Assembly: GCA_963718585.1 (NCBI GenBank)
Contig: OY970357.1
Coordinates: forward strand, 570,001-602,000
DNA length: 32,000 bases
Source of the DNA: Candidatus Saccharimonadota bacterium
GTDB taxonomy: Bacteria > Patescibacteriota > Patescibacteriia > 2-12-FULL-60-25
Direction: 5' to 3'
Shown: positions 5,067 to 29,947 of the stretch, in pieces
How the letters are laid out: every line of letters begins with the position of its first letter
Position numbering within the stretch: the stretch's first letter is position 1
The notes under the pieces: generated by a model
The model's database searches: none
Told to the model about the DNA's origin: nothing
Seen by the model: the letters and a program-made list of their open reading frames with translations, nothing else
Made by a program: the position numbers and the translations under genes

Positions 5067-5897
5067 TTACGGGCACGTCGGCGTACCTGTTCCTTTGATG
5101 AGCGTGCACTCAGAGAAGATCACATAGCTGAACACGCCCGAAAGGACATTCGACTTCGGCATGACCACTCTGATCTTCTGTGTCGCATTCTGATACGTCC
5201 CTTCTGCGGAAAGCGTCACATCGCCGGGAAACGCCTTCGGAATGCTTCCGCCAGAATCCGAATAGGTCTTCGCGATCAGATCTTTCGCCGTACAACCGAG
5301 CGCATGGATACGAACACGATAATTCTTCGACGGATCTAGGAGAAGCGTCATGGTCTGGCCGCTGTTCACACAATTCGCATCCGGCGGACTCAACCCTTGC
5401 CGACATACCGTATACGCCTGTGGGAGGACGCCGGACGTCAGATCGAAATCCGCATACCCTGCTTCGACCTGCGCGCTTGTCCCGAGAGCCGCGCAGTCCG
5501 GACCGTTAGACCATGACAGATCAAGGCGCGCGACCCCGGCCGCCTGGACATTATCCGGATTGAAGAGATCGACCACTCCGAAGCTGGACGTCGCGACGGT
5601 TGAAAAGGTCTTTTCCGTCGTCGTGGCGTATCCGCCAAAGAATGTCCACGAACCCTGACCCGGATATTGTGCATCCAGTGCAGATAATTGACCGGTCGTC
5701 GCATCCTTCTTCCGCACCTCATACAACTGGCGCTCGATGCCGGAATCTGCAAAGTAGTACGCCAAAACCGAGTGGTCATTCTCGACCGCGCGTTTAGAAC
5801 CCTGGAGAACGACCGTCCCGATCCCGATGCCTGCAAGCAGGATCATGGTGGTCATGATCAGGGCGAGCGGGAGGATGCTTCCGTGGTCAGATCGCAT
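5067..5897 (-). CDS. PilX-like minor pilus protein (N-terminal hydrophobic anchor, no canonical G/FxxxE site)
   Basis: N-terminus MRSDHGSILPLALIMTTMILLAGIGIGTVVL...AYYFADSGIE resembles the PilX N-terminal domain pattern. It is the last gene of the pseudopilin row. Confidence 0.65.
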   Translation of the reverse strand: MRSDHGSILPLALIMTTMILLAGIGIGTVVLQGSKRAVENDHSVLAYYFADSGIERQLYEVRKKDATTGQLSALDAQYPGQGSWTFFGGYATTTEKTFSTVATSSFGVVDLFNPDNVQAAGVARLDLSWSNGPDCAALGTSAQVEAGYADFDLTSGVLPQAYTVCRQGLSPPDANCVNSGQTMTLLLDPSKNYRVRIHALGCTAKDLIAKTYSDSGGSIPKAFPGDVTLSAEGTYQNATQKIRVVMPKSNVLSGVFSYVIFSECTLIKGTGTPTCP

Positions 5898-5898
5898 A

Positions 5899-6513
5899 TC
5901 AACGTTGATAGATCCGTGAGGACACCGTCGTTTGTGCCTGAAGCGTCACATTCTCCTTCGGCTGATCCGAGATGTACTTCAATCCGAGGCTGACCGTCAC
6001 ATATGGCTGGATGTTGTTGGGATACGATCCGCCGACCTTGATAAATGGGTCCTGCGTGGGCTCGAGATACACGTCAAAATTGGTCACATCAACCCGATTC
6101 GCCGTCACCTGCGTCCACGTCGCGCCATCATCGATCGATAGCATGAGACAATGACTGACGATCGTATCCTGGCACTTTGGACTTCCAGTGCTGCTTTCGC
6201 GTGCGATCCAAATATGGATCCCGTTCGATTTGAAGAGTTTGAGGATCGCATCCTTTTCAGCGGGACCTGCAGAATAATCGATGGTGTCGTTCCGCGCTTC
6301 ACGCACGATCGCTTCCATCGCATAGCGCATATCCTGTCCAAGGACCGCCTTGTCCGCGACCCTCCGATGTAATTGATTGAACGAGATGAATATCTGCGAG
6401 AGTGCGACCGCCATCAACATGAAAATGAATGTCACGATCAACATCTCGACCAGGGTGTAGCCCGGCGCGAGAGATGGTTTCCGCGTTGATGTATTGACTC
6501 GGGAACGAGTCAA
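5899..6513 (-). CDS. GspJ/PilW-like minor pseudopilin (start uncertain: TTG 6513, or in-frame ATGs up to 6753)
   Basis: Class III signal ...KPSLAPG|YTLVEMLIVTFIFMLMAVAL with Glu at +5. TTG 6513 gives a 17-aa leader, MTRSRVNTSTRKPSLAPG. The track ORF stays open in frame up to ATG 6753, overlapping the upstream gene by 14 nt. Confidence 0.7.
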   Translation of the reverse strand: MTRSRVNTSTRKPSLAPGYTLVEMLIVTFIFMLMAVALSQIFISFNQLHRRVADKAVLGQDMRYAMEAIVREARNDTIDYSAGPAEKDAILKLFKSNGIHIWIARESSTGSPKCQDTIVSHCLMLSIDDGATWTQVTANRVDVTNFDVYLEPTQDPFIKVGGSYPNNIQPYVTVSLGLKYISDQPKENVTLQAQTTVSSRIYQR

Positions 6514-6648
6514 TGACGGATCGGACGTTTTTTGCGTGATGAGATGCGATGGTTTAGACCAGATGGACTTCGAAAATGGAATGAAACGCGACGAGCTGGA
6601 ACGAGTCGACAAAGGATCGGACGTTTTATGCGTGATGAGATACGAAGG
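6503..6648. repeat. Two 50-nt direct repeats with a 96-nt period upstream of or within the pseudopilin 5' region
   Basis: 6503-6552 versus 6599-6648 match at 43 of 50 positions (gaacgagtc...ggatcggacgtttt.tgcgtgatgagat.cga.gg). A perfect 9-bp hairpin at 6493-6501/6506-6514 contains the TTG candidate start. Confidence 0.85.
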
Positions 6649-6739
6649 CCTGGACGGCGAGACCGCCGGAGACGTATTGAACATACGACGAGGACGGGCT
6701 CGACGGAAGGCCGAGCGAATCGCGCGCATAAAACGTTCG

Positions 6740-7321
6740 TTATCGCCAGTCATACAGATCGTCGTAGACAGTTACACTCTTCGCTATCCCCTTTCGCGTC
6801 CATTGGACTTTTGATTCGACACGTACCCCTTTTTTGGTACCTGCCGCACACGTATTAGGCGGATCTAGGACGGTGATCGCGCCGGAATCGCAGATCGGAT
6901 GGAAAGTGATCAAGCGAGCGTACGGCGTTGAAGTTCCGCTCGTACCCTGTCCATAGAACGTTCCCCCATTGATCAAGAACACCCTCGCTCCCGCGTCTGT
7001 GATCGCGTTCGCTGTAAAATCGAAGGATGGGACCGTACCCGCCTGACCGATCCATGCGGAGGTTCCTGTGTAGTTCGTCGAGTCTCCGACCGCATACAGA
7101 CCTGTATCAAAATCCGCTCCTGCAAGCCAGTTCGAATCCCGGACCTCCTTGGCAAGCTCCACTCCTTCACGCGCCATATTCACTGCGACCACCTCATCCG
7201 TATCCCGATCCACAAGCGCCAAATTGGAATAGACGATCGCCATCGCGGACATCAACCCGACACTGATCACCATCAGGGCGATAAGCATCTCGATCATGGT
7301 CTGTCCGTGTCGCAATCGCAT
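6740..7321 (-). CDS. GspI/PilV-like minor pseudopilin
   Basis: MRLRHG|QTMIEMLIALMVISVGLMSAMAIV: prepilin cleavage/methylation motif with Glu at +5. It sits in the pseudopilin row. Confidence 0.75.
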   Translation of the reverse strand: MRLRHGQTMIEMLIALMVISVGLMSAMAIVYSNLALVDRDTDEVVAVNMAREGVELAKEVRDSNWLAGADFDTGLYAVGDSTNYTGTSAWIGQAGTVPSFDFTANAITDAGARVFLINGGTFYGQGTSGTSTPYARLITFHPICDSGAITVLDPPNTCAAGTKKGVRVESKVQWTRKGIAKSVTVYDDLYDWR

Positions 7322-9860: not shown

Positions 9861-11081
9861 TTATCCGATCCCAGCCCCGCTCGAAAGCTGGTAGAGCGGC
9901 AACATGATGGCGGAGACAAGGACACCAACGCCTAAGCCAAGGATCACGATCACGATCGGCTCAATGAGCTTGGTCAGAGTTGCGACCACATTGTCGATCT
10001 CCCGGGAGTAAAATTCGCTCAATCGCCCAAGGATGTTCTCGGTCTTCCCTGTTCCCTCACCGACCTCAAGCATCTGCAGCATCATAGTGGGGATGAATTT
10101 ATGCCGCTTGAAAGCCGTCACAATGGAATTCCCATCGTTCACCTCTTGGATCGTTTCAAGGACCGCCCGCTTCCAGACCGCGTTCCCGACCACGCCAGAA
10201 ACGATCTCCAAGGCGGAAACGAGGTCCATACCCCCATGCACGAGCGTTTCAAGCGAACGTGAAAATCGAACAACGTACATCTCCCGGAATAACAGACCAA
10301 AGATCGGGATCTTCATCTTGATACTGTCCCACGTATACCGTCCGGGCGGCGTCCCGATCCAGGCACGGAAACCGACACCCAATCCGACCATGGCGATCAG
10401 GATGAGCCACCACCAAGTTGCCATGAATCCGGAGGTCGCGATGAGGATCCTGGTGGAAAGCGGCAATTCGACATTTGCCTGCGACAGGATGGACGTCAGC
10501 TTCGGCACCACGAATGTCATCATGACGAATCCGACGACGAACATGACGGAGATGATGAAGGCTGGATAGATCAGTGCCCCCTTGATCTTGGCCGACAGAT
10601 CAAAATCCTTTTCCTGCTGATCCGCCAGATATTCGAGCACTTCGGAAAGCTGCCCCGTCGTTTCCCCAGAACGAACCATGTTGATGAAAAACCCGCTAAA
10701 GACCTTGGGGTAGCGCTCAAGCGCGTCTGAAAAACGGGCACCGTTCTCCACCTCACCCCCTACATCGGAAAGGATGGATCTGAGCCGCGGATTTTCCGTC
10801 TGATGCGCGATGTTCCGCACCGCATCAGCCACGGGCACGGACGCACTGATCATCACGGACAATGTCCGCGTCGCGATGACAAGGTCCTTCGGCTTGACGC
10901 GATTCAAAAGGAGCGTCAGGCGCTGTTCCGCGACTTCGACGCCTTCATATGGCTCCAAGAGCAAAACATCCAAACTCCGCTCAACAAGTGCCTCCTGAGC
11001 TGTATTGATGTCCTCCGATTCGATGGTTCCGGCTTGCATCCGGCCATCGGACATCCGCGCACGATACTTGAATGTTGGCAT
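9861..11081 (-). CDS. pilC: Type IV pilus platform protein (GspF/PilC family)
   Basis: 406-aa polytopic protein with duplicated GspF-type cytoplasmic domains (MPTFKYRARMSDGRMQAGTIE...; ...GETTGQLSEVLEYLA...; ...VGEGTGKTENILGRLSEFY). Confidence 0.92.
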   Translation of the reverse strand: MPTFKYRARMSDGRMQAGTIESEDINTAQEALVERSLDVLLLEPYEGVEVAEQRLTLLLNRVKPKDLVIATRTLSVMISASVPVADAVRNIAHQTENPRLRSILSDVGGEVENGARFSDALERYPKVFSGFFINMVRSGETTGQLSEVLEYLADQQEKDFDLSAKIKGALIYPAFIISVMFVVGFVMMTFVVPKLTSILSQANVELPLSTRILIATSGFMATWWWLILIAMVGLGVGFRAWIGTPPGRYTWDSIKMKIPIFGLLFREMYVVRFSRSLETLVHGGMDLVSALEIVSGVVGNAVWKRAVLETIQEVNDGNSIVTAFKRHKFIPTMMLQMLEVGEGTGKTENILGRLSEFYSREIDNVVATLTKLIEPIVIVILGLGVGVLVSAIMLPLYQLSSGAGIG

Positions 11082-11087
11082 AGTTCG

Positions 11088-11096
11088 ATATTAGCA
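11088..11096 (-). promoter_or_regulatory. Extended -10 element immediately upstream of pilC (leaderless design)
   Basis: Minus strand reads TGcTAATAT (11088-11096), followed by 6 nt (cgaact) and ATG 11081. No SD is present. Confidence 0.35.
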
Positions 11097-11232
11097 CGGC
11101 CACAAGCGGGCTTCACGTCTTTTCACAGCCGTTCAGAATGGATGAGATGCGCCGGGCTGGAGCCTGAAAAAACCGCAAGCGTATGACACATACGATGAGG
11201 ATTATTTCGGGCGAAGCCCAAGTAGATCGCCA

Positions 11233-11616
11233 TTATGTACGGCTATCGGCGAGGATCTCTTTGACACGTGCCACCGTCTCCTGCGGCAATGAATGCGCCT
11301 TGATGACATATCCTGCCGCGCCGAGCTTCAAACAGCGCTCCACATCCTCCTTTTGTCCGAGATTCGTGAGAACGAGGACCGGGATCTTCGTAAGATCGGC
11401 ATCCGCTTTCATCTGCTCCAGGACCTCGAACCCATTCAATTTGGGCATGAGCAGGTCCAAAAGGACGAGATCCGGCATCTCTTTCCGCGCGAGCTTCAGC
11501 CCATCTTCCCCGTTCGTGGCAAGCGTGGTCTCAAACCCCTCCAGCTCCAACTTTTGCGCATAGATGCTGGCCAGGAATCCGTCGTCTTCGACAATGAGAA
11601 TGTGTTGCTTCGGCAT
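11233..11616 (-). CDS. Stand-alone response-regulator receiver domain (CheY-like)
   Basis: 127 aa: ILIVEDDGFLASIY...PDLVLLDLLMPKLNGFEVL...PVLVLTNLGQ...GAAGYVIKA. Acidic pocket, phospho-acceptor Asp, and conserved T and K positions are present. No output domain. Confidence 0.9.
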   Translation of the reverse strand: MPKQHILIVEDDGFLASIYAQKLELEGFETTLATNGEDGLKLARKEMPDLVLLDLLMPKLNGFEVLEQMKADADLTKIPVLVLTNLGQKEDVERCLKLGAAGYVIKAHSLPQETVARVKEILADSRT

Positions 11617-14578: not shown

Positions 14579-15670
14579 TCAAGGACTCACGGCGACCGTA
14601 CTGGTCGAAGCGCGCAAAGCGAGGTCGTTGAGGGTCAAAGAGAGCTGAAAATCCACATTCGTCGCATCATTCGTGGATGTCGAGTATTGCATCGCGTAAT
14701 TCGGCGCCTGCACAGAGGTGATGAAATCCGCATGCTGGAAGACCGAGACCTGTCCTGCCGCAGACTCGATGGATCTGGCCTTCACCCCCAGAGAAAGCGT
14801 GCCGTCCGAGGTCAACGAAAACGAATTATACGCGACATCTGGAAGCGTATGCGATTCGATCAGCTGAAGAAGATGGGTCGGACTGACGTGCTGATCAAGG
14901 AGTTGATTCAAGGCCACCAGCCGCGGTTCGAGATCTTGGAAATCCGACCACTGCTTCTGTTTCGATGCGATATCTTGCTGGACCTGCGTGAGCTGATCCT
15001 GCGCCTCCTGCTTGCTCGCATCAGCTCCCGTCAACTGATATCGCAGGAGCGCATAGCTTCCGCCCAAAAGAATGAGGAACAGGACCGCTGCCGTCGCAAA
15101 GGTGAAACGCCGTTTTGCGACGTCGATATGCAACATGCGAAGCTCTTCTTCTGAGACGAAGCTGACATGGAGCGGTTTGCGGACCCGTTTGATGATCCGG
15201 ACGCGATGCGGCGCCGTCGCGGACGGCGTAATGCGAGCCTTTGGCTTAGCCGGAGCGGCTGGCGCCATACCTGCCGGCGCCATAGGAGGTTTAGCCGGGA
15301 GAGCGGCACCCATGGGTGGAACCGGCGCGCCCAACGGCGCCATTCCCGTCTTTTTTTCTGGCGGTTTGAAAAATTGCGGTGGCGCTTTCGGCGGTGGTGC
15401 GATCGGCTGAGGCTTGAACAACTTATCCTTCAAACCCTGTAGAAAGGCCGTGGCTTTATAGACAAAACGAGTCAATGGCGGTTCGTTCGCCAAGATCTGA
15501 TCCAGCTCTCCCTCGTCCACTTCGATGACCTCGACCTCCTCCCCTTCGTCGGCCGGAACGGAGAACTTCAACTCTTCCGGTTTGGGAGGTTCCGGTTTGG
15601 GTTCATGCTTCTTCAGTTCCTCTTCTTTGCCGCGTTGATTTTCGGGAAGAAGGGAGATCTCGTCACTCAT
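14579..15670 (-). CDS. pilN: PilN-like protein with a long acidic/Pro-rich cytoplasmic insertion
   Basis: The N-terminal ISLLPE matches the conserved PilN INLLP-type peptide. The TM lies at about aa 190-209, followed by a coiled coil and a periplasmic-type domain. About 175 aa of Glu- and Pro/Ala/Met-rich sequence lie between the motif and the TM. Confidence 0.7.
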   Translation of the reverse strand: MSDEISLLPENQRGKEEELKKHEPKPEPPKPEELKFSVPADEGEEVEVIEVDEGELDQILANEPPLTRFVYKATAFLQGLKDKLFKPQPIAPPPKAPPQFFKPPEKKTGMAPLGAPVPPMGAALPAKPPMAPAGMAPAAPAKPKARITPSATAPHRVRIIKRVRKPLHVSFVSEEELRMLHIDVAKRRFTFATAAVLFLILLGGSYALLRYQLTGADASKQEAQDQLTQVQQDIASKQKQWSDFQDLEPRLVALNQLLDQHVSPTHLLQLIESHTLPDVAYNSFSLTSDGTLSLGVKARSIESAAGQVSVFQHADFITSVQAPNYAMQYSTSTNDATNVDFQLSLTLNDLALRASTSTVAVSP

Positions 15671-15834
15671 GGATCGTCTTTTCTATGACATGCCGCGATA
15701 CACGGCCCTTGATGAACGCTGAAATGCGATGAGACGCGCTGGGTTGGAGCAAGACGTGCGTGAGACGTACTGAAGCGTACGGCGAAACGCACGCCGCAGC
15801 GAAACCCAAGCAGATCGCGCATTTCAGATGTCAT
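15667..15834 (-). CDS. 55-codon bridging small ORF across the pilM-pilN spacer (hypothetical; possibly only a ribosome relay)
   Basis: ATG (15832-15834 rc) lies 2 nt after the pilM TAA. Its TGA (15667-15669 rc) overlaps the pilN ATG as ATGA. Peptide: MTSEMRDLLGFRCGVRFAVRFSTSHARLAPTQRVSSHFSVHQGPCIAACHRKDDP. Confidence 0.3.
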   Translation of the reverse strand: MTSEMRDLLGFRCGVRFAVRFSTSHARLAPTQRVSSHFSVHQGPCIAACHRKDDP

Positions 15835-15835
15835 A
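15684..15835 (-). other. 152-nt extended imperfect hairpin filling the pilM-pilN spacer
   Basis: Nested stems: 15684-15691/15828-15835 (8 bp), 15719-15728/15818-15827 (10 bp), 15740-15745/15803-15808 (6 bp), 15755-15761/15787-15793 (7 bp) and 15766-15770/15777-15781 (5 bp). Confidence 0.55.
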
Positions 15836-15836
15836 C

Positions 15837-16904
15837 TTATTCGATGTCGCGCATGGCACAGCCGATCGCTACGGAAAACCGCGGTCCGATCTCATCCAAA
15901 ACGGGCCGCAGATCCAAAGGATACACGACGCGCGCCCAGGGGTCTCCTAGGTAGGCGTTCACGTTCATGAGCGAGGTCACGAATTCAGGCAGATTCGGCA
16001 ACAACGCGGAGCCGCCCGTCAGGATGATCTTATCGATCCGCTTCTGAACCCCGCCTTCGCTCTGCCCCTGATACATATTGAACGAATACCGGATCTCATC
16101 GATCACCGGTTTCAGCAAGGTATTCAGGATCGGTGTGATATCGCTCGCCTGTGCAAAACTTTGCATGGCGCGGATATCACGCTTCATGTTCTCCGCCTGT
16201 TCAAACGGGATGCCGATGGTCTTGGAGATCGTCTGAGTGATATTGATCCCGCCGGCGGCGACCGATCGATTGAGGAACGGGATCCCCTTATCAATGACCG
16301 AGATGTTCGTCCGCGTGGAGCCGATATCAATGACCATGATGCTCGACCGATCCTTCCCCACGAGTGACCGGATCTCCGCGAACGCTTCGGTCTCAAGTGA
16401 GATGAGCTCCAGGTCGGCTTTTTTCATCAATTCGATATATTTCTGGACGAGCGACTTCGGCGCCCCGGTCAGGAGCACACGCGTGGTCTTCTTCTTACCA
16501 TCCCCCGAGATCGTATCGATGATCTTGGAATCGAGTGATACCTCCTCCAACGGGACCGGTATGAGTTTCTTCGCCTGCCACTGGATCGCATCTTTGATCT
16601 CCTTATCCGAGTTCCCCGGGACGCTGATGATCGACGAGAAGACCGCTGAGATCGGCAACGCTCCCACGACAAGCTTGGTCGTGCACTTTGATTTGGACAG
16701 CATCTTCTTCACGAACTTGGCCGTCTTATCCACATCTGCGCCAAGGGCCGTTTCGATGTCCGGCGTCGGGAGCGCCGCATGCGCATAGGTCACGAGACGC
16801 GCGCGCCCCTTCTCGTTCTGCAATTCGACGATCTTGATGCCGGATTGGCCGATATCGAATCCGATGTAACTCTGCTTCTTCGATTTGGTGGAGAAAAGGC
16901 TCAT
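15837..16904 (-). CDS. pilM: PilM, actin-like ATPase of the pilus alignment complex
   Basis: 355 aa: YIGFDIGQSGIKIVEL..., IMVIDIGSTRTNISVI..., ILTGGSALLPNL. These are actin/HSP70-fold phosphate-binding motifs typical of PilM/FtsA-like proteins. Confidence 0.9.
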   Translation of the reverse strand: MSLFSTKSKKQSYIGFDIGQSGIKIVELQNEKGRARLVTYAHAALPTPDIETALGADVDKTAKFVKKMLSKSKCTTKLVVGALPISAVFSSIISVPGNSDKEIKDAIQWQAKKLIPVPLEEVSLDSKIIDTISGDGKKKTTRVLLTGAPKSLVQKYIELMKKADLELISLETEAFAEIRSLVGKDRSSIMVIDIGSTRTNISVIDKGIPFLNRSVAAGGINITQTISKTIGIPFEQAENMKRDIRAMQSFAQASDITPILNTLLKPVIDEIRYSFNMYQGQSEGGVQKRIDKIILTGGSALLPNLPEFVTSLMNVNAYLGDPWARVVYPLDLRPVLDEIGPRFSVAIGCAMRDIE

Positions 16905-16910
16905 AGAAAG

Positions 16911-18908
16911 TTAGAAGGCGTCTTGAGTAGCGGGGAGAGACTTGGAGACGTCGGCCATGCCTGGCGGCGGATTAGCGACCGCGCGGCCGTCAAAGATCAC
17001 ATTCTCCGCCGGGGTGCTCGGATCACGGACCACGCGCTGAAGATCGATCTGATGGGCGGCCATGAGGCCGTACACGGTCAGCGGCTGCTCGCTCGGACAG
17101 GTCGTCGCGCCGCCGCACGCCGTCCCGGTCTTGATCGATTCTTCCGCGAACATCGCGGCAGAGACGATCGTGACACCCGGATCAATGACGATGTTCCCAC
17201 CAAATCCATTCTTCTTCGTCACAATGATACCAAGTGAGGCGAGATTGCGCAGATATTGGATGCTGGCGGACGGTGCATACGTGATATTCCCCGTGATATG
17301 GAGATCCGCGCCCTCGATGATGAGGAGGCCATTCCCCCGATCTGTCTGCGCGGAACCGTTCCCAAGCGCGGCCGCGTTGAGCGTGATCGTCCCTGGACCG
17401 ACCGCATGATAGACCTTGCCGCCAAGGAGCGTCGGCAGACTGCCGGTGAAATTCACGACAGCCCCGTAATGTCCGGCAAGGATGCCATAGATATCGAGAC
17501 TCCCGAGCGTGCCCTGATATTGCTGTGCCCCGGATGGGAGCTGGATCTTCTGCGCTCCGGTCTCGGAGCATCCTTTTGCACTCGTGAAACCGGTGATCGA
17601 CCCTTCGGTCGTCAGACAGTACGTGGCATTATTCGTGGTCAAAAGCGGCGAGGAAGAAGCGACCAGTCCCTGCTGGGCGTAGATGCTGCCATATTGGGTC
17701 TGCAGCCAGGGCGGCGCACAGGTGGGATCCACGGCCTGACAGCTCGCATCATTGCAATCCACTGTCCCATTGCCGTCATCGTCGATGCTGTTCGAGCAAC
17801 ACGCGTGCACCCCGAGCGGCGCGAATGGCGGATTCGGATCCGTGCACGATGGTTCGCTCCCTGCCGGCGGAGGCGGCGGCGAACACGAGGCCCCCGGAGG
17901 TCCGACATATCCGGCGCACCCTGGATCCGCGCAGTCGATCAACCCGTTGCCGTTATCATCCTTCCCATTGCCGCACAAAGGAGTCCCGCCCGCGTCCGTG
18001 ACTCCCGGCACTTCATTGCAGTACGAGCTCGGCTGACACGCGGCGGCCGCACAATCGATCAGTCCGTCGCCATTATCATCCACGCCGTTGTGACACATGT
18101 TATTTCCCCCAGAATCAGTATTCGTCGGGATCTCCTGACACGCTGCGGTCGATTGGCACGCACTATCTTGACAATCGATCTTCCCGTTCAGATCGTTGTC
18201 CTTCCCGTCTGTACACGCGGATTCGCCCGGGGTGTTGAGATAGACGCTTGAAAAATCGATGTACCCGAACCCTGTACCATCCGAATTCCCGTTCCAGGCG
18301 AATGACGTATACGGCGGCGGCGTGTTCGCCGTGAACTTCTTGGTCGTAGGATCGTATTGGACCTTATATGCATAAATGCCGCACGCGGACGGATCAGTAC
18401 AATTGAGTGAGACATACCCGGCATCGCCCTCGTTGCAGACCTTGGCCCATCCATGGACGTCCGTGACTCCGCTGACCGGATTGAGATACGCCGATGCGGA
18501 CCCGGGGGAACTGAATCCACCACATGCAGAACACGAATCTCCGAAGCAGATCCACCCTGCTCCATCATTCCACGCGAACCCATTCATGTTGCGTGTGTTT
18601 GGATCGACGTTCACACCGTAACTCCCACAGGGTCCGGGCGAACATGCTCCCGCGTTCGTGTCATTCATCGATGACCAGCCGATCGGATCCGCCCAGATCC
18701 ATCCCATGACATTGTCCGAGACCGTTGCCTGTGCAGGATGCTGGACCGCTCCGTATTGGAATGACGCGACCATCATGCCGACGCCGACGAACATGATGAA
18801 TCCGGATAGAAGATGATGCCATCGCCATAACCAATTCGGCCGCTTCAAGCGGCGCCGCGATCGTCTCGCGGTACGTCGAGTCCTGGTCTGACGCTTGGTC
18901 GTTACCAT
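16911..18908 (-). CDS. Large N-terminally anchored Cys/Asp-rich surface protein leading the pilus operon (candidate adhesin or Ca-binding pilus factor)
   Basis: Very basic N-terminus plus one TM. Four Trp/Gly-rich motif repeats (GWIWADPIGWSSMN, FAWNDGAGWICF, HGWAKV..AGYVSLN, FAWNGNSDGTGFGYIDF). Four Cys-bracketed repeats of the form C.[DN]G.D[DN][DN].[DN]G.[IV]DC....C (aa 232-397). The C-terminal third is predicted beta-rich. Confidence 0.8.
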   Translation of the reverse strand: MVTTKRQTRTRRTARRSRRRLKRPNWLWRWHHLLSGFIMFVGVGMMVASFQYGAVQHPAQATVSDNVMGWIWADPIGWSSMNDTNAGACSPGPCGSYGVNVDPNTRNMNGFAWNDGAGWICFGDSCSACGGFSSPGSASAYLNPVSGVTDVHGWAKVCNEGDAGYVSLNCTDPSACGIYAYKVQYDPTTKKFTANTPPPYTSFAWNGNSDGTGFGYIDFSSVYLNTPGESACTDGKDNDLNGKIDCQDSACQSTAACQEIPTNTDSGGNNMCHNGVDDNGDGLIDCAAAACQPSSYCNEVPGVTDAGGTPLCGNGKDDNGNGLIDCADPGCAGYVGPPGASCSPPPPPAGSEPSCTDPNPPFAPLGVHACCSNSIDDDGNGTVDCNDASCQAVDPTCAPPWLQTQYGSIYAQQGLVASSSPLLTTNNATYCLTTEGSITGFTSAKGCSETGAQKIQLPSGAQQYQGTLGSLDIYGILAGHYGAVVNFTGSLPTLLGGKVYHAVGPGTITLNAAALGNGSAQTDRGNGLLIIEGADLHITGNITYAPSASIQYLRNLASLGIIVTKKNGFGGNIVIDPGVTIVSAAMFAEESIKTGTACGGATTCPSEQPLTVYGLMAAHQIDLQRVVRDPSTPAENVIFDGRAVANPPPGMADVSKSLPATQDAF

Positions 18909-18916
18909 TCCACGCT

Positions 18917-18925
18917 ATTGTAACA
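18917..18925 (-). promoter_or_regulatory. Extended -10 element of the pilus operon (leaderless design)
   Basis: Minus strand reads TGtTACAAT (18917-18925), followed by 8 nt (agcgtgga) and ATG 18908. It directly abuts the T-tract of the upstream terminator. Confidence 0.4.
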
Positions 18926-18926
18926 C

Positions 18927-18948
18927 AAAAAACGGCCCTCGGCCGTCC
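18927..18948 (-). terminator. Rho-independent terminator after recJ-rnhA
   Basis: Minus strand reads ACGGCC gag GGCCGT TTTTT. The stem is 18941-18946/18932-18937 and the T-run is 18927-18932. Confidence 0.75.
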
Positions 18949-24405: not shown

Positions 24406-26220
24406 TTAACGTGAATCTCCACGGCGAAGGACCTTGATGAAGGCGTCGGAGGGGATCTCCACACTCCCCTTCCCCATGCTCATCATCTTGGACTTCCCCT
24501 TTTTCTGTTTTTGAAGCAGCTTCATTTTGCGCGTTACGTCGCCTCCGTACAAGTACCCGGTCACGTCCTTGCGATATGCAGACAATCGCTCAGACGCGAT
24601 GACCTTGGCTCCGATGGCCGCCTGGATCTTGATGACGAATTGCCGTCGCTCAAGCGTCTCCTTGAGCGTTTCGACGATATGCCGCCCGCGGAATTCGGCC
24701 TCCGATCGATGAACGAGTGACGACAGCGCCGGGACCGGTTCCTCCGCGACCAGGATATCAAGGCGCACGATATCCGCCAGCCGATATCCGATGAAGTCAT
24801 AATTCAGCGACGCATACCCCTGCGTCACGCTTTTCAGCCGGTCGTAAAAATCGACGATCACGCTGGCAAGCGGCATCTCAAAGTGCATGACCGCGCGTTC
24901 GGCATCAAGCCATTCCGTGGTCTGGAACGTCCCACGCCGCTCGGTCACGATCGTCATGATCGCGCCGAAGTAGGATGATGGCGTGACGATGTCCACCTTG
25001 ACCCACGGTTCGCGCGTCTCCTGTAGAAATGACGGGTCCGGGTAATCAAGCGGCGACGTGACGACCACCTGGGTCCCATCTGTCTTCACGACCTCGTAGG
25101 CCACGGACGGCGTGGTCACGATCACTTCGAGGCCGCCTTCGCGCCGCAACCGTTCCTGCACGATCTCGAGATGCAACATCCCAAGGAGTCCGCACCGGAA
25201 GCCGAATCCGAGCGCGGTGCTCTGTTCCGGTTCATAGGTCAGCGCGGCGTCATTCAACCGTAAGCGTTCCATCGCGTCGCGCAGACGGTTGTAGGCATCG
25301 CCCTCTTTGGGAAAGATCCCGGCATAGACCATGGGACGGACGACCTTGTATCCCGGGAGCGCCTGCGTATCCGCGACGCGCGAACGGACCGCGACCGTGT
25401 CCCCCACGCGAACCTCCGTGATCTCTTTCAATCCCGTGACGATATACCCGATCTCCCCGGTCGCAAGGGCGGAGGAAGCTATCAGTGCGGGTTTCAGATA
25501 CCCGACTTCGAGTGCATCACCGTCTGCCTTCGTCGCCATGAACCGCAATTTGTCGTTCTTTGTGATCGTCCCATCCACCAAACGCACGTACGCGACCACG
25601 CCGCGATAATCGTCGTATTTGGAATCAAAGATGAGCGCCCGCGGTGGCTTTGATGGATCGCCAGATGGGGATGGCACGCGCTGGACGATCGCCTCCAGGA
25701 TCGCGGGCACGCCCTCTCCGGTCTTTCCCGATGCGGTCAGGATCTCCTCGCGCTTACAGCCGATGAGCTTGATGATCTCCTCGGCACGACGCTCTACGTC
25801 CGCATTGGGCAGATCGATCTTGTTGAGCACGGGAATGATCTCCAGATTCTGCTCGATCGCGAAATAGAGGTTCGCGATGGTCTGTGCCTGCACACCTTGC
25901 GTCGCGTCGACGAGGAGCAAGGCGCCCTCGACCGCTGCAAGGGAACGGTTCACTTCGTAATGAAAGTCGACATGACCGGGCGTGTCGATGAGATTCAATT
26001 GATATTCCGATGTATCTTCACCGATATATTTCATCCGTGCGGGCTGAAGTTTGATCGTGATCCCCCGCTCCCGCTCAATATCCATGGTATCGAGCATCTG
26101 TGCCTGAAGCTTCCGTTTTTCAACGGTTCCCGTGACCTCAAGCAACCGATCGGCAAGCGTACTCTTGCCGTGGTCGATATGCGCGATGATGCAGAAATTT
26201 CGGATGTGGGATTGGTCCAT
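24406..26220 (-). CDS. lepA: Elongation factor 4 (translational GTPase LepA)
   Basis: IRNFCIIAHIDHGKSTLADRLL (G1), DTPGHVDF (G3), NKID (G4), full EF4 length (604 aa) and a LepA-specific C-terminal region. Confidence 0.95.
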   Translation of the reverse strand: MDQSHIRNFCIIAHIDHGKSTLADRLLEVTGTVEKRKLQAQMLDTMDIERERGITIKLQPARMKYIGEDTSEYQLNLIDTPGHVDFHYEVNRSLAAVEGALLLVDATQGVQAQTIANLYFAIEQNLEIIPVLNKIDLPNADVERRAEEIIKLIGCKREEILTASGKTGEGVPAILEAIVQRVPSPSGDPSKPPRALIFDSKYDDYRGVVAYVRLVDGTITKNDKLRFMATKADGDALEVGYLKPALIASSALATGEIGYIVTGLKEITEVRVGDTVAVRSRVADTQALPGYKVVRPMVYAGIFPKEGDAYNRLRDAMERLRLNDAALTYEPEQSTALGFGFRCGLLGMLHLEIVQERLRREGGLEVIVTTPSVAYEVVKTDGTQVVVTSPLDYPDPSFLQETREPWVKVDIVTPSSYFGAIMTIVTERRGTFQTTEWLDAERAVMHFEMPLASVIVDFYDRLKSVTQGYASLNYDFIGYRLADIVRLDILVAEEPVPALSSLVHRSEAEFRGRHIVETLKETLERRQFVIKIQAAIGAKVIASERLSAYRKDVTGYLYGGDVTRKMKLLQKQKKGKSKMMSMGKGSVEIPSDAFIKVLRRGDSR

Positions 26221-26232
26221 AGGCGGTCTGCG

Positions 26233-26382
26233 TCATCGCGCAAAGGGAAGGGTCGGAAACCGTGAGGTTTCCGTGGCGGAGGGAGGATGCAAAGCATCCT
26301 GGGAACCGATGGCTTCCCAGGAGTCCGCCTCGTGCGGACGACGGACGATGATGCAGAAATTTCGGATGTGGGATCGGTCCAT
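26233..26382 (-). CDS. 49-codon upstream ORF starting with the duplicated lepA N-terminus (hypothetical leader ORF)
   Basis: MDRSHIRNFCIIVRRPHEADSWEAIGSQDALHPPSATETSRFPTLPFAR. It is in the same frame as lepA, and its TGA lies 12 nt before lepA ATG 26220. The promoter -10 sits 11 nt upstream of its ATG. Confidence 0.25.
   Translation of the reverse strand: MDRSHIRNFCIIVRRPHEADSWEAIGSQDALHPPSATETSRFPTLPFAR
26254..26339 (-). other. Four consecutive hairpins between the two lepA 5' copies
   Basis: 26254-26261/26266-26273 (8 bp), 26285-26290/26294-26299 (6 bp), 26297-26305/26314-26322 (9 bp, sharing 3 nt with the previous hairpin) and 26323-26328/26334-26339 (6 bp). Confidence 0.6.
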
Positions 26383-26393
26383 GGATGAGGCGC

Positions 26394-26422
26394 ATTCTGC
26401 CTGAAATCAGGGCGTTTGGCAA
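26394..26422 (-). promoter_or_regulatory. Putative sigma70-type promoter of the lepA-cfa transcript
   Basis: Minus strand reads TTGCCA (26417-26422), a 17-nt spacer, CAGAAT (26394-26399), then 11 nt to ATG 26382. Confidence 0.45.
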
Positions 26423-26453
26423 TCCAGCCACGCCCATATGAGATTTGTCATTC

Positions 26454-27434
26454 CTATTGCCCCAACAGCTGTGATCCAGCCGCCGGGCCGCTGATCGTCG
26501 GTGTCGATGTCGGCGGAGTCAATTCCGTATCAAGCGGCACGCGCAAAGGCGCCGTGAACTGCGGGAAGATCTTCTCCAACATCGCACGGCTCTCGAGGAT
26601 CCGGACGCGCTGGATGAACCGATCCGGGATCTTTGCCGCGACCGGCAGTTTGATGAACCTCGCCGGACGCTTGAGCCGTTCCGGCAGGATCTTTTGTTTG
26701 GCAAAGAGGAAACCCGCCTTGGTCTGATCTGTCGCGGTCAATCGATGGACAAGCGCCTTCAACTGATCCGGATCGGATCGCGTAAATGTCTGCGCGGTCG
26801 CGCGCAAGCCTTGTCCGGCAGCAAGCGCGATCACGGGCAGGGCTGGCGGCGTCTGATCCTGCCCGGGTTCGACATTATTCTCCGCCATCACCTGGACCTC
26901 ATGGTCCGCGACCTGGATATCCGCTGCATCCCCGTCGATGGAAACGCCGAACGCCGTACCCCGGACCGTTGCCACCACGCCGTTCGCCACGACATTGAAA
27001 TGGTCATCTTTCCCAAAGAGCTTCTCGAATCGCGTCCAGACACTTCCCGCGGTGAGCTGGATCTCCGCGGCGATGGAGGAACCATCCGCCCCGTCATTCG
27101 GCAGCAAGACGATCTGCGTTCCTGTCTCTAGACGTGAGATCCCCGTTTCCGGATAGACCAACTCGACCGGCCCCTGTGTGACGGTCACGGCATCGCCGCC
27201 GTTCAATTCCATGTCATCCTTCGCTTGATACACCTGATCCGCCCGATCCACATTGGCAGAACCACCATCCAGCCTGAGATAGGCGATGGCGGCTGGAGTG
27301 GAACTCGTCTCCGTCGTTTGCGCGACCTCGGTCCCTGACGGCGCCTGTGCGACACGCGGATGGACCTGAAAGCACCCCGCACCGACGAGCGGCAACGTAA
27401 GCGCCAAAGAGAGAACGGCAAAGGGAGATCGCAT
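26454..27434 (-). CDS. FecR-domain protein with signal peptide (possible lipoprotein)
   Basis: MRSPFAVLSLALTLPLVGAGC... followed by a FecR-like beta-rich pattern (GGDAVTVTQGPVELVYPETGISRLETGTQIVL; LTAGSVWTRF...VATVRGTAFGV). Start at ATG 27434; GTG 27440 is an alternative. Confidence 0.78.
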   Translation of the reverse strand: MRSPFAVLSLALTLPLVGAGCFQVHPRVAQAPSGTEVAQTTETSSTPAAIAYLRLDGGSANVDRADQVYQAKDDMELNGGDAVTVTQGPVELVYPETGISRLETGTQIVLLPNDGADGSSIAAEIQLTAGSVWTRFEKLFGKDDHFNVVANGVVATVRGTAFGVSIDGDAADIQVADHEVQVMAENNVEPGQDQTPPALPVIALAAGQGLRATAQTFTRSDPDQLKALVHRLTATDQTKAGFLFAKQKILPERLKRPARFIKLPVAAKIPDRFIQRVRILESRAMLEKIFPQFTAPLRVPLDTELTPPTSTPTISGPAAGSQLLGQ

Positions 27435-28321: not shown

Positions 28322-29947
28322 TCAGAGCCCCTGCGCCTCCTCCGCCCCTTCGATGGATGCCGGCTGACGGAAGAGTCGCCGATTCACGGCCGCGAGAAGC
28401 TGGGCGAGCTCCGGCGAACGGAATAAATAGGCGACGAGCAAGAAGGCGCAGGCACCGACCGTCCCGGCCGCTGCCGCCTGAAGAGCCACCTGCCAGAAGG
28501 TCCGCAGGGGTAAAACGGATCCGATGAACTGCCGGACCGGATAACCCGCCGCGATCACGGCGATCGAAGCGATAAAGGTCCGCCCGAACGAACCAAAATA
28601 TTCCTTTTCATGCAGCGATCCGTATTGTCGACGCAACTGCCACCATAACAGCAAAAGATTCACATAGGTCGCAATGGAAAAAGCCACGGCAAGGCCATCC
28701 ACGCCAAAACGATGATAGAGAAGCAATGCGGCGCAGATATTAGCCGCCTCAGAGACGAAACTCACCCAAAACGGCGTCCGCGTGTTCTGCAACGCATAGA
28801 AAGCCCGCGCAAAAAGCGGAACCAATGCCTGACCTAAGAGCGAGACGGTAAAGATCCCGAGGACCGTCGCGGTCCGGATCGTGTCATCCCAACTGAATTC
28901 GCCGGCCCCAAGAGCCAAACGCACGATCTGCGCGCGAAGAAGGAAGAATAACGCCGTGACCGGAAGGATCAAGAACGTCACCTTCCGCATCGAAGAGACG
29001 AGGGTCTTTTTGAAATGTTCCTGATCTTTCAAACTCGCGTATTTCGCGAGGAGGGGAAAGGCGGCGACGGCGAAGGAGATCCCGAAGAGACCGACCGGAA
29101 AGGATTGAAGGTTATTCGCAAGATTGAAGATCGACACGGAGCCGACCGCGAGCGTGGAAGCGATGCTTAACAGGATGACGAGGTTCAACTGGCTCACGGC
29201 CAGCCCAGCCGTCCGTGGCGCCATGAGGAACATGATGCGTCGCACGCCAGGCGAACGGAGGGAGGGCCGCGGCAACTTTCGCAGTCCAAGGCGAAGCACG
29301 ACGGATGTTTGGACCGCAAAATGCATGAGCGCACCGAGGATCACGCCCCATGCCACCCCTTCGACACCCATGTGCGGCACGAGAAAGATCGCGCCGAAGA
29401 TGATCCCGAGGTTATACAGGACCGGAGCCAACGCAAACGCCAGCATGCGCCGCGTCGCCTGCAGGATCCCGCCCATGACCGCAGAAAGGCCGAGCAGGAA
29501 CGGCGACAGGAACATGATCCGTGACAGCCGGACCGTCAGCGCCATGAGATCCGGGGGGAAACCCGGAACGGTCAGCGGAACGATGAGCGGCGCGAAGAAT
29601 GCGAGCAGCGCACACGTGATCGCCATGGTCGCGGCGACCACGGACAAGACCTGCTCGGCGAGCTGCCACACCTCATGCCGCTCGCGCTTTTCCAGATACT
29701 CCGCAAAGACCGGGATGAAACCGGCGGACAGCGCGCCCAGGATCACGAGATTATACAGAAAGTCCGGAACGCGGAACGCGGCGTAATACGCATCCAGCGC
29801 GTGACCGGCGCCGAAGGTCCCGGCAAGCGTGCGATCACGCAGGACGCCGACAAGACGCGACGCGAGCGACGCCGCACCGACGATGAACGCCGCGGTCGTC
29901 AGACCGTTCGTCTCTCCGTGCCAAAGCTGGGCAAGGCGTTTCAACAT
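28322..29947 (-). CDS. murJ: Lipid II flippase MurJ (MviN family)
   Basis: 541-aa polytopic protein. N-terminus AAFIVGAASLASRLVGVLRDRTLAGTFGAGHALDAYYAAFRVPDFLYNLVILGALSAGFIPVF is the characteristic MurJ/MviN pattern. Confidence 0.92.
   Translation of the reverse strand: MLKRLAQLWHGETNGLTTAAFIVGAASLASRLVGVLRDRTLAGTFGAGHALDAYYAAFRVPDFLYNLVILGALSAGFIPVFAEYLEKRERHEVWQLAEQVLSVVAATMAITCALLAFFAPLIVPLTVPGFPPDLMALTVRLSRIMFLSPFLLGLSAVMGGILQATRRMLAFALAPVLYNLGIIFGAIFLVPHMGVEGVAWGVILGALMHFAVQTSVVLRLGLRKLPRPSLRSPGVRRIMFLMAPRTAGLAVSQLNLVILLSIASTLAVGSVSIFNLANNLQSFPVGLFGISFAVAAFPLLAKYASLKDQEHFKKTLVSSMRKVTFLILPVTALFFLLRAQIVRLALGAGEFSWDDTIRTATVLGIFTVSLLGQALVPLFARAFYALQNTRTPFWVSFVSEAANICAALLLYHRFGVDGLAVAFSIATYVNLLLLWWQLRRQYGSLHEKEYFGSFGRTFIASIAVIAAGYPVRQFIGSVLPLRTFWQVALQAAAAGTVGACAFLLVAYLFRSPELAQLLAAVNRRLFRQPASIEGAEEAQGL

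Follow-up and report, generated by a model that had tools for sequence, protein, structure and literature searches.

Why do 166 nt intervene between pilM and pilN in a type IV pilus cluster of a Patescibacteria (Uhrbacteria-like) genome? We addressed this question in a window of 32,000 nt (the whole stretch of DNA analysed), in which the cluster runs on the minus strand in the order 665-aa protein, pilM, a PilN-like gene, pilO, a small gene, a PilB-type ATPase, a response regulator, pilC, pilins, prepilin peptidase and minor pilins. An original prediction, made from the letters of the window, had described the spacer as a closed hairpin bridged by a 55-codon open reading frame (ORF), and had offered for it, among others, a stoichiometry-setting coupling device or a palindromic insertion kept by a relay ORF. 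Our analysis indicates that the spacer is probably, although by no means certainly, one copy of a new lineage-specific family of palindromic repeats of about 125-165 nt, which are similar to MITEs (miniature transposable elements with inverted repeats), ERIC and RPE and sit at stop-to-start junctions, the ORF being a by-product of the element. The features of the junction are the following.

15837..16904, minus strand: pilM, an actin-like type IV pilus assembly ATPase-fold protein (Pfam PilM_2, E 1.1e-46), 5' of the element
15673..15835, minus strand: copy 1 of the palindromic element, filling nearly the entire spacer, with closed hairpin 15684-15835, core 15719-15827, side arm 15692-15718 and 3' tail GAAAAGACG at 15673-15681
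15667..15834, minus strand: 55-codon ORF, TAA-gt-ATG ... ATGA, bridging the pilM stop and the pilN start
14579..15670, minus strand: PilN-like gene (363 aa, N-terminus MSDEISLLP), 3' of the element and followed by pilO

Both the sequence and the computed fold bear out the predicted 152-nt closed hairpin within the 166-nt spacer. Its outer stem (15828-15835 paired with 15684-15691) is a perfect 8-bp helix that begins 1 nt past the pilM stop codon (TAA, 15839-15837) and finishes 13 nt ahead of the pilN ATG (15670-15668), exactly as had been claimed, and on its 5' side this outer inverted repeat is contiguous with a 10-bp stem. The apex (a 5-bp stem with a 6-nt loop) is as described, but where five stems totalling 36 bp had been counted, the minimum free energy (MFE) structure of the closed form has 46 nested pairs in eight helical segments and 6 more in the side arm. 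This side arm, 15692-15718, had been taken for a 27-nt asymmetric bulge; it does lie outside the main helix, but forms a 6-bp mini-hairpin of its own. The fold is far more stable than chance in the 109-nt core (dG -48.2 kcal/mol, z -5.3) and in the 152-nt closed form (dG -63.0 kcal/mol, z -4.8), none of 200 shuffles being equally stable in either case.

Copy 1 ends in 5'-TA...TA-3' with the 8-bp perfect inverted repeat, but the element does not stop at the foot of the hairpin. Since the tail GAAAAGACG is identical in copies 1 and 3 (see below), copy 1 extends to within 4 nt of the pilN ATG. For the same reason we rejected an earlier reconstruction in which GAAAAGACGATCC was the ancestral spacer, likened to the 15-nt spacer of the related locus L006. 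The accessibility of the pilN start, 0.58 with the insert and 0.63 without it, was computed with a control built on that reconstruction, and is to be read as a comparison with a crude deletion, in which 15684-15833 were removed and the 3' tail of the element was left.

The hairpin did not match anything in the collections that we searched. Rfam covariance models gave no match in the whole window at the gathering score, nor at 15600-15900 with E up to 10, and the spacer had no match in phage and plasmid collections. No terminator-like site was found in 15300-16200, where no T-run follows the hairpin, and no promoter motif was found in the copy 1 element. An origin of the hairpin from flanking pilM or pilN sequence was rejected for want of significant similarity, as was a faint resemblance between the start of the 55-codon ORF (MTSEMRDLL) and that of PilN (MSDEISLL). 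A metagenome scan with the basal stems of copy 1 (CTGAAATGCG N70-100 CGCATTTCAG) returned 42 matches, all of them due to chance and confined to the arms; it is in the basal stem that the family is least conserved.

That there is a family at all became apparent from a covariance model (CM), built first from the single hairpin and its MFE structure and then from three copies (model R3). The single-sequence model found two more matches on the same strand, at 6617-6740 (49.3 bits) and 11096-11246 (45.9 bits), which the three-copy model scored at 114.4 bits (copy 2) and 130.7 bits (copy 3), with E-values of 1e-10 to 1e-31; copy 1 itself scored 190 and 163 bits. All three copies in the 32-kb window are in gene (sense) orientation. 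With filters off, the three-copy model found no fourth copy in the window, and it found none in 50 related loci, so that the search for homologous elements envisaged by the original prediction yielded two paralogues in the window and none in relatives. A search of the spacer against the window by blastn-short had returned only matches of 20-23 nt, at 11141-11163 and 11211-11230 (E 0.3-1), which the CM later showed to be copy 3: word-based searches miss the palindromic family.

11116..11246, minus strand: copy 3, a 122-nt hairpin (11125-11246) plus the tail GAAAAGACG (11116-11124), at the junction of the response regulator and pilC
6617..6740, minus strand: copy 2, 124 nt without side arm, lying in frame in a minor-pilin gene, inside its leader-coding 5' end

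Pairwise identity among the three copies is only 55-60%, and the pairing is maintained through compensatory change, which confirms the covariation looked for. Standard pairs make up 91% of the pair cells and double changes occur in 24 of the 52 pairs, a level reached by none of 500 shuffles, with slid controls 28-49% paired; the homologues are three paralogues, however, and this first alignment was fitted to the model. A structure-blind MAFFT alignment gives the same homology of the three copies, and RNAalifold applied to it independently found 39 pairs, 18 of them with compensatory changes. The motifs invariant in the MAFFT alignment, GCGAU, UUC, CGUA.G...UACG, UCCA and UCUCAUC, are all interior.

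Strong covariation at such low identity would be expected if the hairpin were a selected cis-acting RNA module, an intercistronic stem-loop working as an RNase III/E site, as a barrier to 3' exonucleases or as a coupling or occlusion device, and recruited to three junctions to set PilM against PilN/O, the regulator against PilC, and minor pilin expression. We judge this to be rather unlikely, though it deserves to be taken seriously. Selection on the transcript should leave a strand-specific signature, namely tolerance of G-U pairs and a sense fold at least as good as the antisense, and no such signature was found. The fold has z -5.4 in copy 2, and in copy 3 -4.5 for the sense and -7.0 for the antisense strand; the antisense is better by about 10 kcal/mol in copy 2 (-58.3 versus -49.0) and copy 3 (-53.3 versus -43.1), and in copy 1 the two strands are equal. 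Among the pairs of the three copies there are 11 G-U and 5 A-C cells, only a slight excess. A DNA palindrome would behave in this way, and not an mRNA-selected structure. Because both strands fold equally well, or the antisense better, covariation among the paralogues does not point to an mRNA-level device; a dedicated stoichiometry or coupling role, as once proposed, is neither shown nor excluded.

The contexts of copies 2 and 3 show what such an element does to its host genes, and involve these further features.

11233..11616, minus strand: response-regulator gene, with its final codons and stop inside the 5' arm of copy 3
9861..11081, minus strand: pilC, a T2SSF-type platform protein 3' of copy 3 (the L035 orthologue has Pfam T2SSF)
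5899..6753, minus strand: minor-pilin-like ORF that contains copy 2, with the prepilin motif APG|YTLVEM about 95 codons past the ancestral ATG
6494..6546, minus strand: 3' end of the element repeated in part (6518-6546) by a tandem duplication of about 96 nt, in the same open frame
6494-6513, minus strand: 8-bp perfect palindrome TTGACTCG/CGAGTCAA, in the same open frame, after the partial copy

The stop codon of the regulator gene (TAA, 11235-11233) lies inside the 5' arm of copy 3, and the protein ends in ...ADSRT*, two residues longer than the ...AKS* of L035, the locus of the nearest relative, which belongs to a sister lineage. A 36-codon ORF starts there from an overlapping UAAUG and runs to the hairpin's foot, where it terminates 41 nt short of pilC. 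Copy 2 starts at the final base of the upstream gene's TAA and lies within a coding region. In L035 the ATG of the minor pilin overlaps the upstream gene (ATGACTGGCGCTGAACGGAAAGGCTAT), and the leader is MTGAERKG|Y. The window retains this ancestral ATG (6753) and the first codons, after which come the element, the tandem duplication of about 96 nt (legible in the peptide repeat SYLITHKTSDP / SHLITQKTSDP) and the 8-bp palindrome, before the leader resumes as RKPSLAPG|YTLVEM. About 250 nt have thus been inserted in frame in the leader-coding region (6484-6753, minus strand), the frame being open throughout and the N_methyl motif still found. Translation beginning at the ancestral ATG would give a prepilin leader of about 95 aa in place of 8; the start chosen by gene callers apparently lies downstream of ATG 6753. 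A protein search with translated copy 2 found no match.

At the three sites the distances in L035 are 0 nt (TAAATG), 21 nt and -14 nt. Since this relative is tight at all three, all three copies were inserted after the split from the L035 lineage. The insertion origin put forward by the original prediction is in this way supported by paralogues and by empty sites; the added idea that the insertion survives through a relay ORF is a separate matter, to which we return below.

The statement that pilM and pilN normally abut also holds. Of 38 related loci, 26 have the two genes -4 to 15 nt apart and the other 12 have 38-166 nt between them, with spacers of 57, 98 and 186 nt in further loci. Most of the long spacers are hairpins of unrelated sequence, many with arms of tandem heptamers, and they mostly start within a few nt of the pilM stop; about a third of the relatives carry unrelated hairpins at this junction. 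Loci with long spacers are dispersed among at least eight lineages of the PilM tree; the sister group of the window holds both L035 (0 nt) and L037 (80 nt, with an unrelated hairpin). Several of the relatives' junction hairpins belong to repeat families with more copies in the same 9-kb locus, which argues for dispersed repeats here too. At g665-pilM and g178-pilB, tight junctions nearby, expansion is hardly ever seen and hairpins are almost absent. Model R3 had no match among the relatives' junction hairpins, which share with the element the junction and, for the most part, the position near the pilM stop, but not the sequence.

Several further observations on these loci are recorded here. 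Arms made of tandem heptamers (TAGGCNN, GTCGTGA, GCAAAGA, GAATTTT) are common in the intergenic hairpins of related Uhrbacteria, several of them multi-copy within 9 kb, at L037:7334-7420, L025:5075-5126 and 1902-2022, the rnh-g665 spacer of L034, and L033:1342-1451, 5072-5199 and 7032-7146; such arms resemble the STRR repeats of cyanobacteria. L029 and L030, whose g665 proteins are 98% and PilO proteins 97.5% identical, have junction spacers of 95 and 129 nt that are barely alignable, and this difference in hairpin content implies rapid turnover at the junction. In the window (15667-15665) and in L014, L015, L025, L029, L030 and L034, serine at PilN codon 2 has an AGY codon and an ATGA arises as a result; these comprise five loci with long pilM-pilN spacers and two in which the pilM TGA overlaps the pilN ATG; the remaining relatives have TCN or another residue there, and the AGY pattern may be phylogenetic.

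The 55-codon ORF is where the original prediction placed it: its ATG (15834) lies 2 nt past the pilM TAA, and its TGA (15669-15667) overlaps the pilN ATG. That it encodes a real small protein is very improbable. Its ATG start, its length and its position within the operon favour a gene; against one, searches of 5.8 billion proteins and, by exhaustive phmmer, of 1.84 billion representatives gave no homologue, there is no Pfam match, and the source annotation, which calls PilM and PilN, leaves it uncalled. Its codon log-likelihood ratio is -0.195 against +0.55 for genes, a value typical of off-frame sequence and as low in only 1.3% of real gene windows. Nor is the frame kept, as it differs, relative to the conserved nucleotides, from that in copies 2 and 3. 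From its codon usage and the other sequence comparisons, we consider the ORF most likely not a gene.

The ORF might nonetheless count where its peptide does not. In a translational relay, ribosomes that have finished pilM would re-initiate 2 nt on, melt the hairpin, end at the ATGA and re-initiate at pilN, restoring a coupling broken by the insertion. We regard such a relay, which would not exclude the other readings, as possible but unsupported, and on the whole as decidedly doubtful. The geometry is exact, and the full arrangement (an ATG no more than 15 nt past the stop, an open frame and an ATGA end) arises in 2.4% of shuffles, or 7% with any start codon. The outer stem hides the ATG (unpaired probability 0.15), which would confine its use mainly to moments after a terminating ribosome has opened the stem. 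All copies have an AUG at the same element position, copy 2 is open for about 80 codons from the ancestral ATG into the downstream gene, and copy 3 has its UAAUG stop-start overlap. However, an open frame, given the AUG, is expected from composition alone (P 0.41, 0.67 and 0.29 for copies 1-3, the copy 2 value being one base out of register), the ORF of copy 3 stops short of pilC, and a bridging ORF occurs in none of ten unrelated long pilM-pilN spacers of relatives. Because the open frames are expected, the frames differ and the copy 3 ORF ends 41 nt early, survival through a relay has no statistical backing. It is true, as had been remarked, that pilN has no Shine-Dalgarno sequence, but this is nothing special, as most genes in the window have none; starts of this kind being commonplace and the pilN start being predicted open, independent initiation is plausible.

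We therefore return to the palindromic repeat family as the preferred account. The element would have entered stop-to-start junctions within the type IV pilus cluster by insertion at the DNA level, and would have persisted by doing little harm: it has no promoter or terminator motif, is poor in stops and can be read through by ribosomes, and copy 1 is predicted to have little effect on how accessible the pilN start region is. The shape of the hairpin may be maintained because the element needs it in order to propagate, or through replication errors that correct palindromes; when long quasipalindromes are replicated, template switching can yield changes that look compensatory. In the operon mRNA, the element would have to fold as a long stem-loop directly past the pilM stop, which probably weakens direct pilM-pilN coupling and may act as a nuclease barrier or target, both as side effects. 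The 55-codon ORF would at most let terminating ribosomes ride through to pilN.

Bacterial MITEs are shorter than 200 bp, usually have TA termini and short terminal inverted repeats, give long stem-loop transcripts, often lie in operons and often carry contiguous ORFs; the one in YPAL has 56 codons, RPE and ORF-bearing MITEs are known in frame inside genes, and both Correia and ERIC elements affect what becomes of flanking mRNA, Correia/NEMIS stem-loops being targeted by RNase III and ERIC changing how stable upstream transcripts are (PMC2229807). Copy 1, non-coding and 152-163 nt long with its 8-bp terminal inverted repeat, agrees with this description in size, there are three dispersed copies in the 32 kb, and filled and empty sites can be compared in L035 at the three sites and in 26 of 38 relatives at pilM-pilN. 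The closest likeness is to ERIC and YPAL, enterobacterial palindromes of 127-168 bp, in size, TA termini (copy 1), short perfect terminal inverted repeats, stem-loop transcript, operon setting and through-ORF. The present family, by contrast, is only 55-60% identical and yet paired, has a conserved interior and a G+C content of about 56% instead of being A+T-rich, and comes from Patescibacteria, with three copies known from a 32-kb window and a target-site duplication that is not demonstrable. With RPE, palindromes of about 100-150 bp in a reduced genome, it shares the occurrence in frame within genes or between genes, the former in copy 2 only, which is open from ATG 6753 (a putative start) across the element as far as the prepilin motif; the sequences are unrelated, and the leader that holds the one intragenic copy of the three would be removed by cleavage. 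Like REP/BIME and Correia elements, it is co-transcribed in an operon as a stable stem-loop beside a stop codon, but REPs are about 35 nt long, and no RAYT or other transposase was seen in the window ORFs scanned. REP stem-loops can stabilise upstream mRNA segments, and intercistronic hairpins set segmental mRNA stability in the puf operon of Rhodobacter and in E. coli malEFG. The latter resemble the element in being strong stem-loops without a U-tract between cistrons that possibly need different output, but theirs are orthologously conserved, whereas the one in the window is a recent insertion with paralogues and no strand bias. We found no description of such palindromic elements in genomes of the candidate phyla radiation (CPR) in the literature searched.

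A number of findings weigh against this account. The interior loops and bulges are conserved and the termini covary and vary, the reverse of a classical MITE defined by its terminal inverted repeats, in which the termini should be best conserved and a cognate insertion sequence (IS) transposase should exist. Identity of 55-60% with the stems kept is awkward as well, because the stems of old MITE copies should not have outlasted neutral decay. All three copies are sense-oriented inside one gene cluster. A target-site duplication would be indistinguishable in copy 1, as TA is self-complementary and part of the inverted repeat, and copies 2 and 3 do not begin with TA. Finally, the clade L025/L034/L087/L088 keeps a homologous hairpin of about 55-65 nt immediately 5' of the pilN ATG (L025:5130-5194, L034:3925-3985, L087:4105-4169, L088:4188-4254), with compensatory changes at 4 pairs and conserved G-U pairs, so that hairpins at this junction can be under selection. 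A CM of this hairpin (R1) scored 54-81 bits on the sense strand and from no match to 31 bits on the antisense, a gap partly expected of a model built on the sense strand; it had no match in the window with E up to 10.

The conserved interior loops, the sense orientation within the pilus cluster and the clade hairpin also favour the RNA module described above, as do the near-exact fit of each copy between the upstream stop and the downstream start and the rise of unrelated hairpins at pilM-pilN in at least eight lineages, with hardly any at g665-pilM and g178-pilB. A small conserved hairpin in the pilN-pilO spacer of another clade can be added to these. It is mainly because hairpins recur, and are sometimes conserved, at the same junction in relatives that we keep this possibility alive. 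Besides the lack of a sense bias, it has to contend with copy 2 lying within a coding region, with the absence of the family from all relatives examined, and with the fast turnover implied by close genomes that differ at the junction (L029/L030, L035/L037). PilM and PilN moreover function as an equimolar complex (PMC6325625), which leaves no obvious rationale for a device that unbalances them. A broader version, in which stop-to-start hairpin cassettes are a selected means of tuning Uhrbacteria pilus operons, uniting the repeated, independent gain of stem-loops at pilM-pilN (and to a lesser extent at pilN-pilO), their conservation in some clades, the covarying family and the relay ORF, appears to us improbable.

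The pilN-pilO hairpin was found in a more distant clade, at L020:3789-3840, L021:6160-6214, L023:5011-5064, L024:6161-6217, L027:2359-2412, L026:6124-6186, L028:6121-6184 and L033:6310-6364, with z from -3.2 to -5.9; RNAalifold gave compensatory changes in 8 of 16 pairs, on a mediocre alignment.

As to the flanking genes, the next relatives of PilM, which carry the name PilM in Patescibacteria or Candidatus Uhrbacteria, share only about 80% identity with it. The name pilN, taken from the original prediction, holds in part: the 363-aa protein has no PilN match in Pfam or NCBIfam, but appears PilN-like from its position before PilO, its one transmembrane helix and its conserved N-terminus, MSDEISLLP being kept in all relatives. 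The first gene of the operon (16911-18908, minus strand), encoding 665 aa, has no Pfam match; it matches NCBIfam NF033662, an acidic double-disulfide repeat, in four stretches (E 2e-24). Directly 5' of it, at 18909-18948 (minus strand), a G+C-rich stem-loop with a T-run is followed by TACAAT, which ends 10 nt before the ATG. This arrangement, similar in relatives and not flagged by the simple scans, suggests a terminator-promoter pair and a near-leaderless mRNA. A start context of TGATCT-ATG or GATCC-ATG recurs at several genes, namely pilO, pilB, pilN and a 541-aa gene at 28322-29947. Elsewhere in the window, the intergenic region upstream of lepA (26205-26470, minus strand) folds into a multi-branch structure closed by GCATCATCG/CGATGACGC; it is among the most stable 120-nt windows and has no Rfam match at E up to 1.

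For annotation, the preferred account carries a warning: the bridging 55-codon ORF and the long N-terminal extension of the minor pilin would represent read-through of the element, not genes. Cultivated Patescibacteria attach to their hosts by a type IV pilus machine (PMC11623550). If the hairpins at pilM-pilN were selected RNA modules after all, they would open to testing the way in which episymbiotic bacteria keep the cytoplasmic part of the pilus machine in balance with its membrane part. If, as we think probable, the element of the window belongs to a palindromic repeat family, this would be the first MITE/RPE-like palindromic family described in a Patescibacteria genome, including an in-frame insertion in a prepilin leader, and it would mean that even tiny, gene-dense genomes still gather selfish hairpins at their operon junctions.

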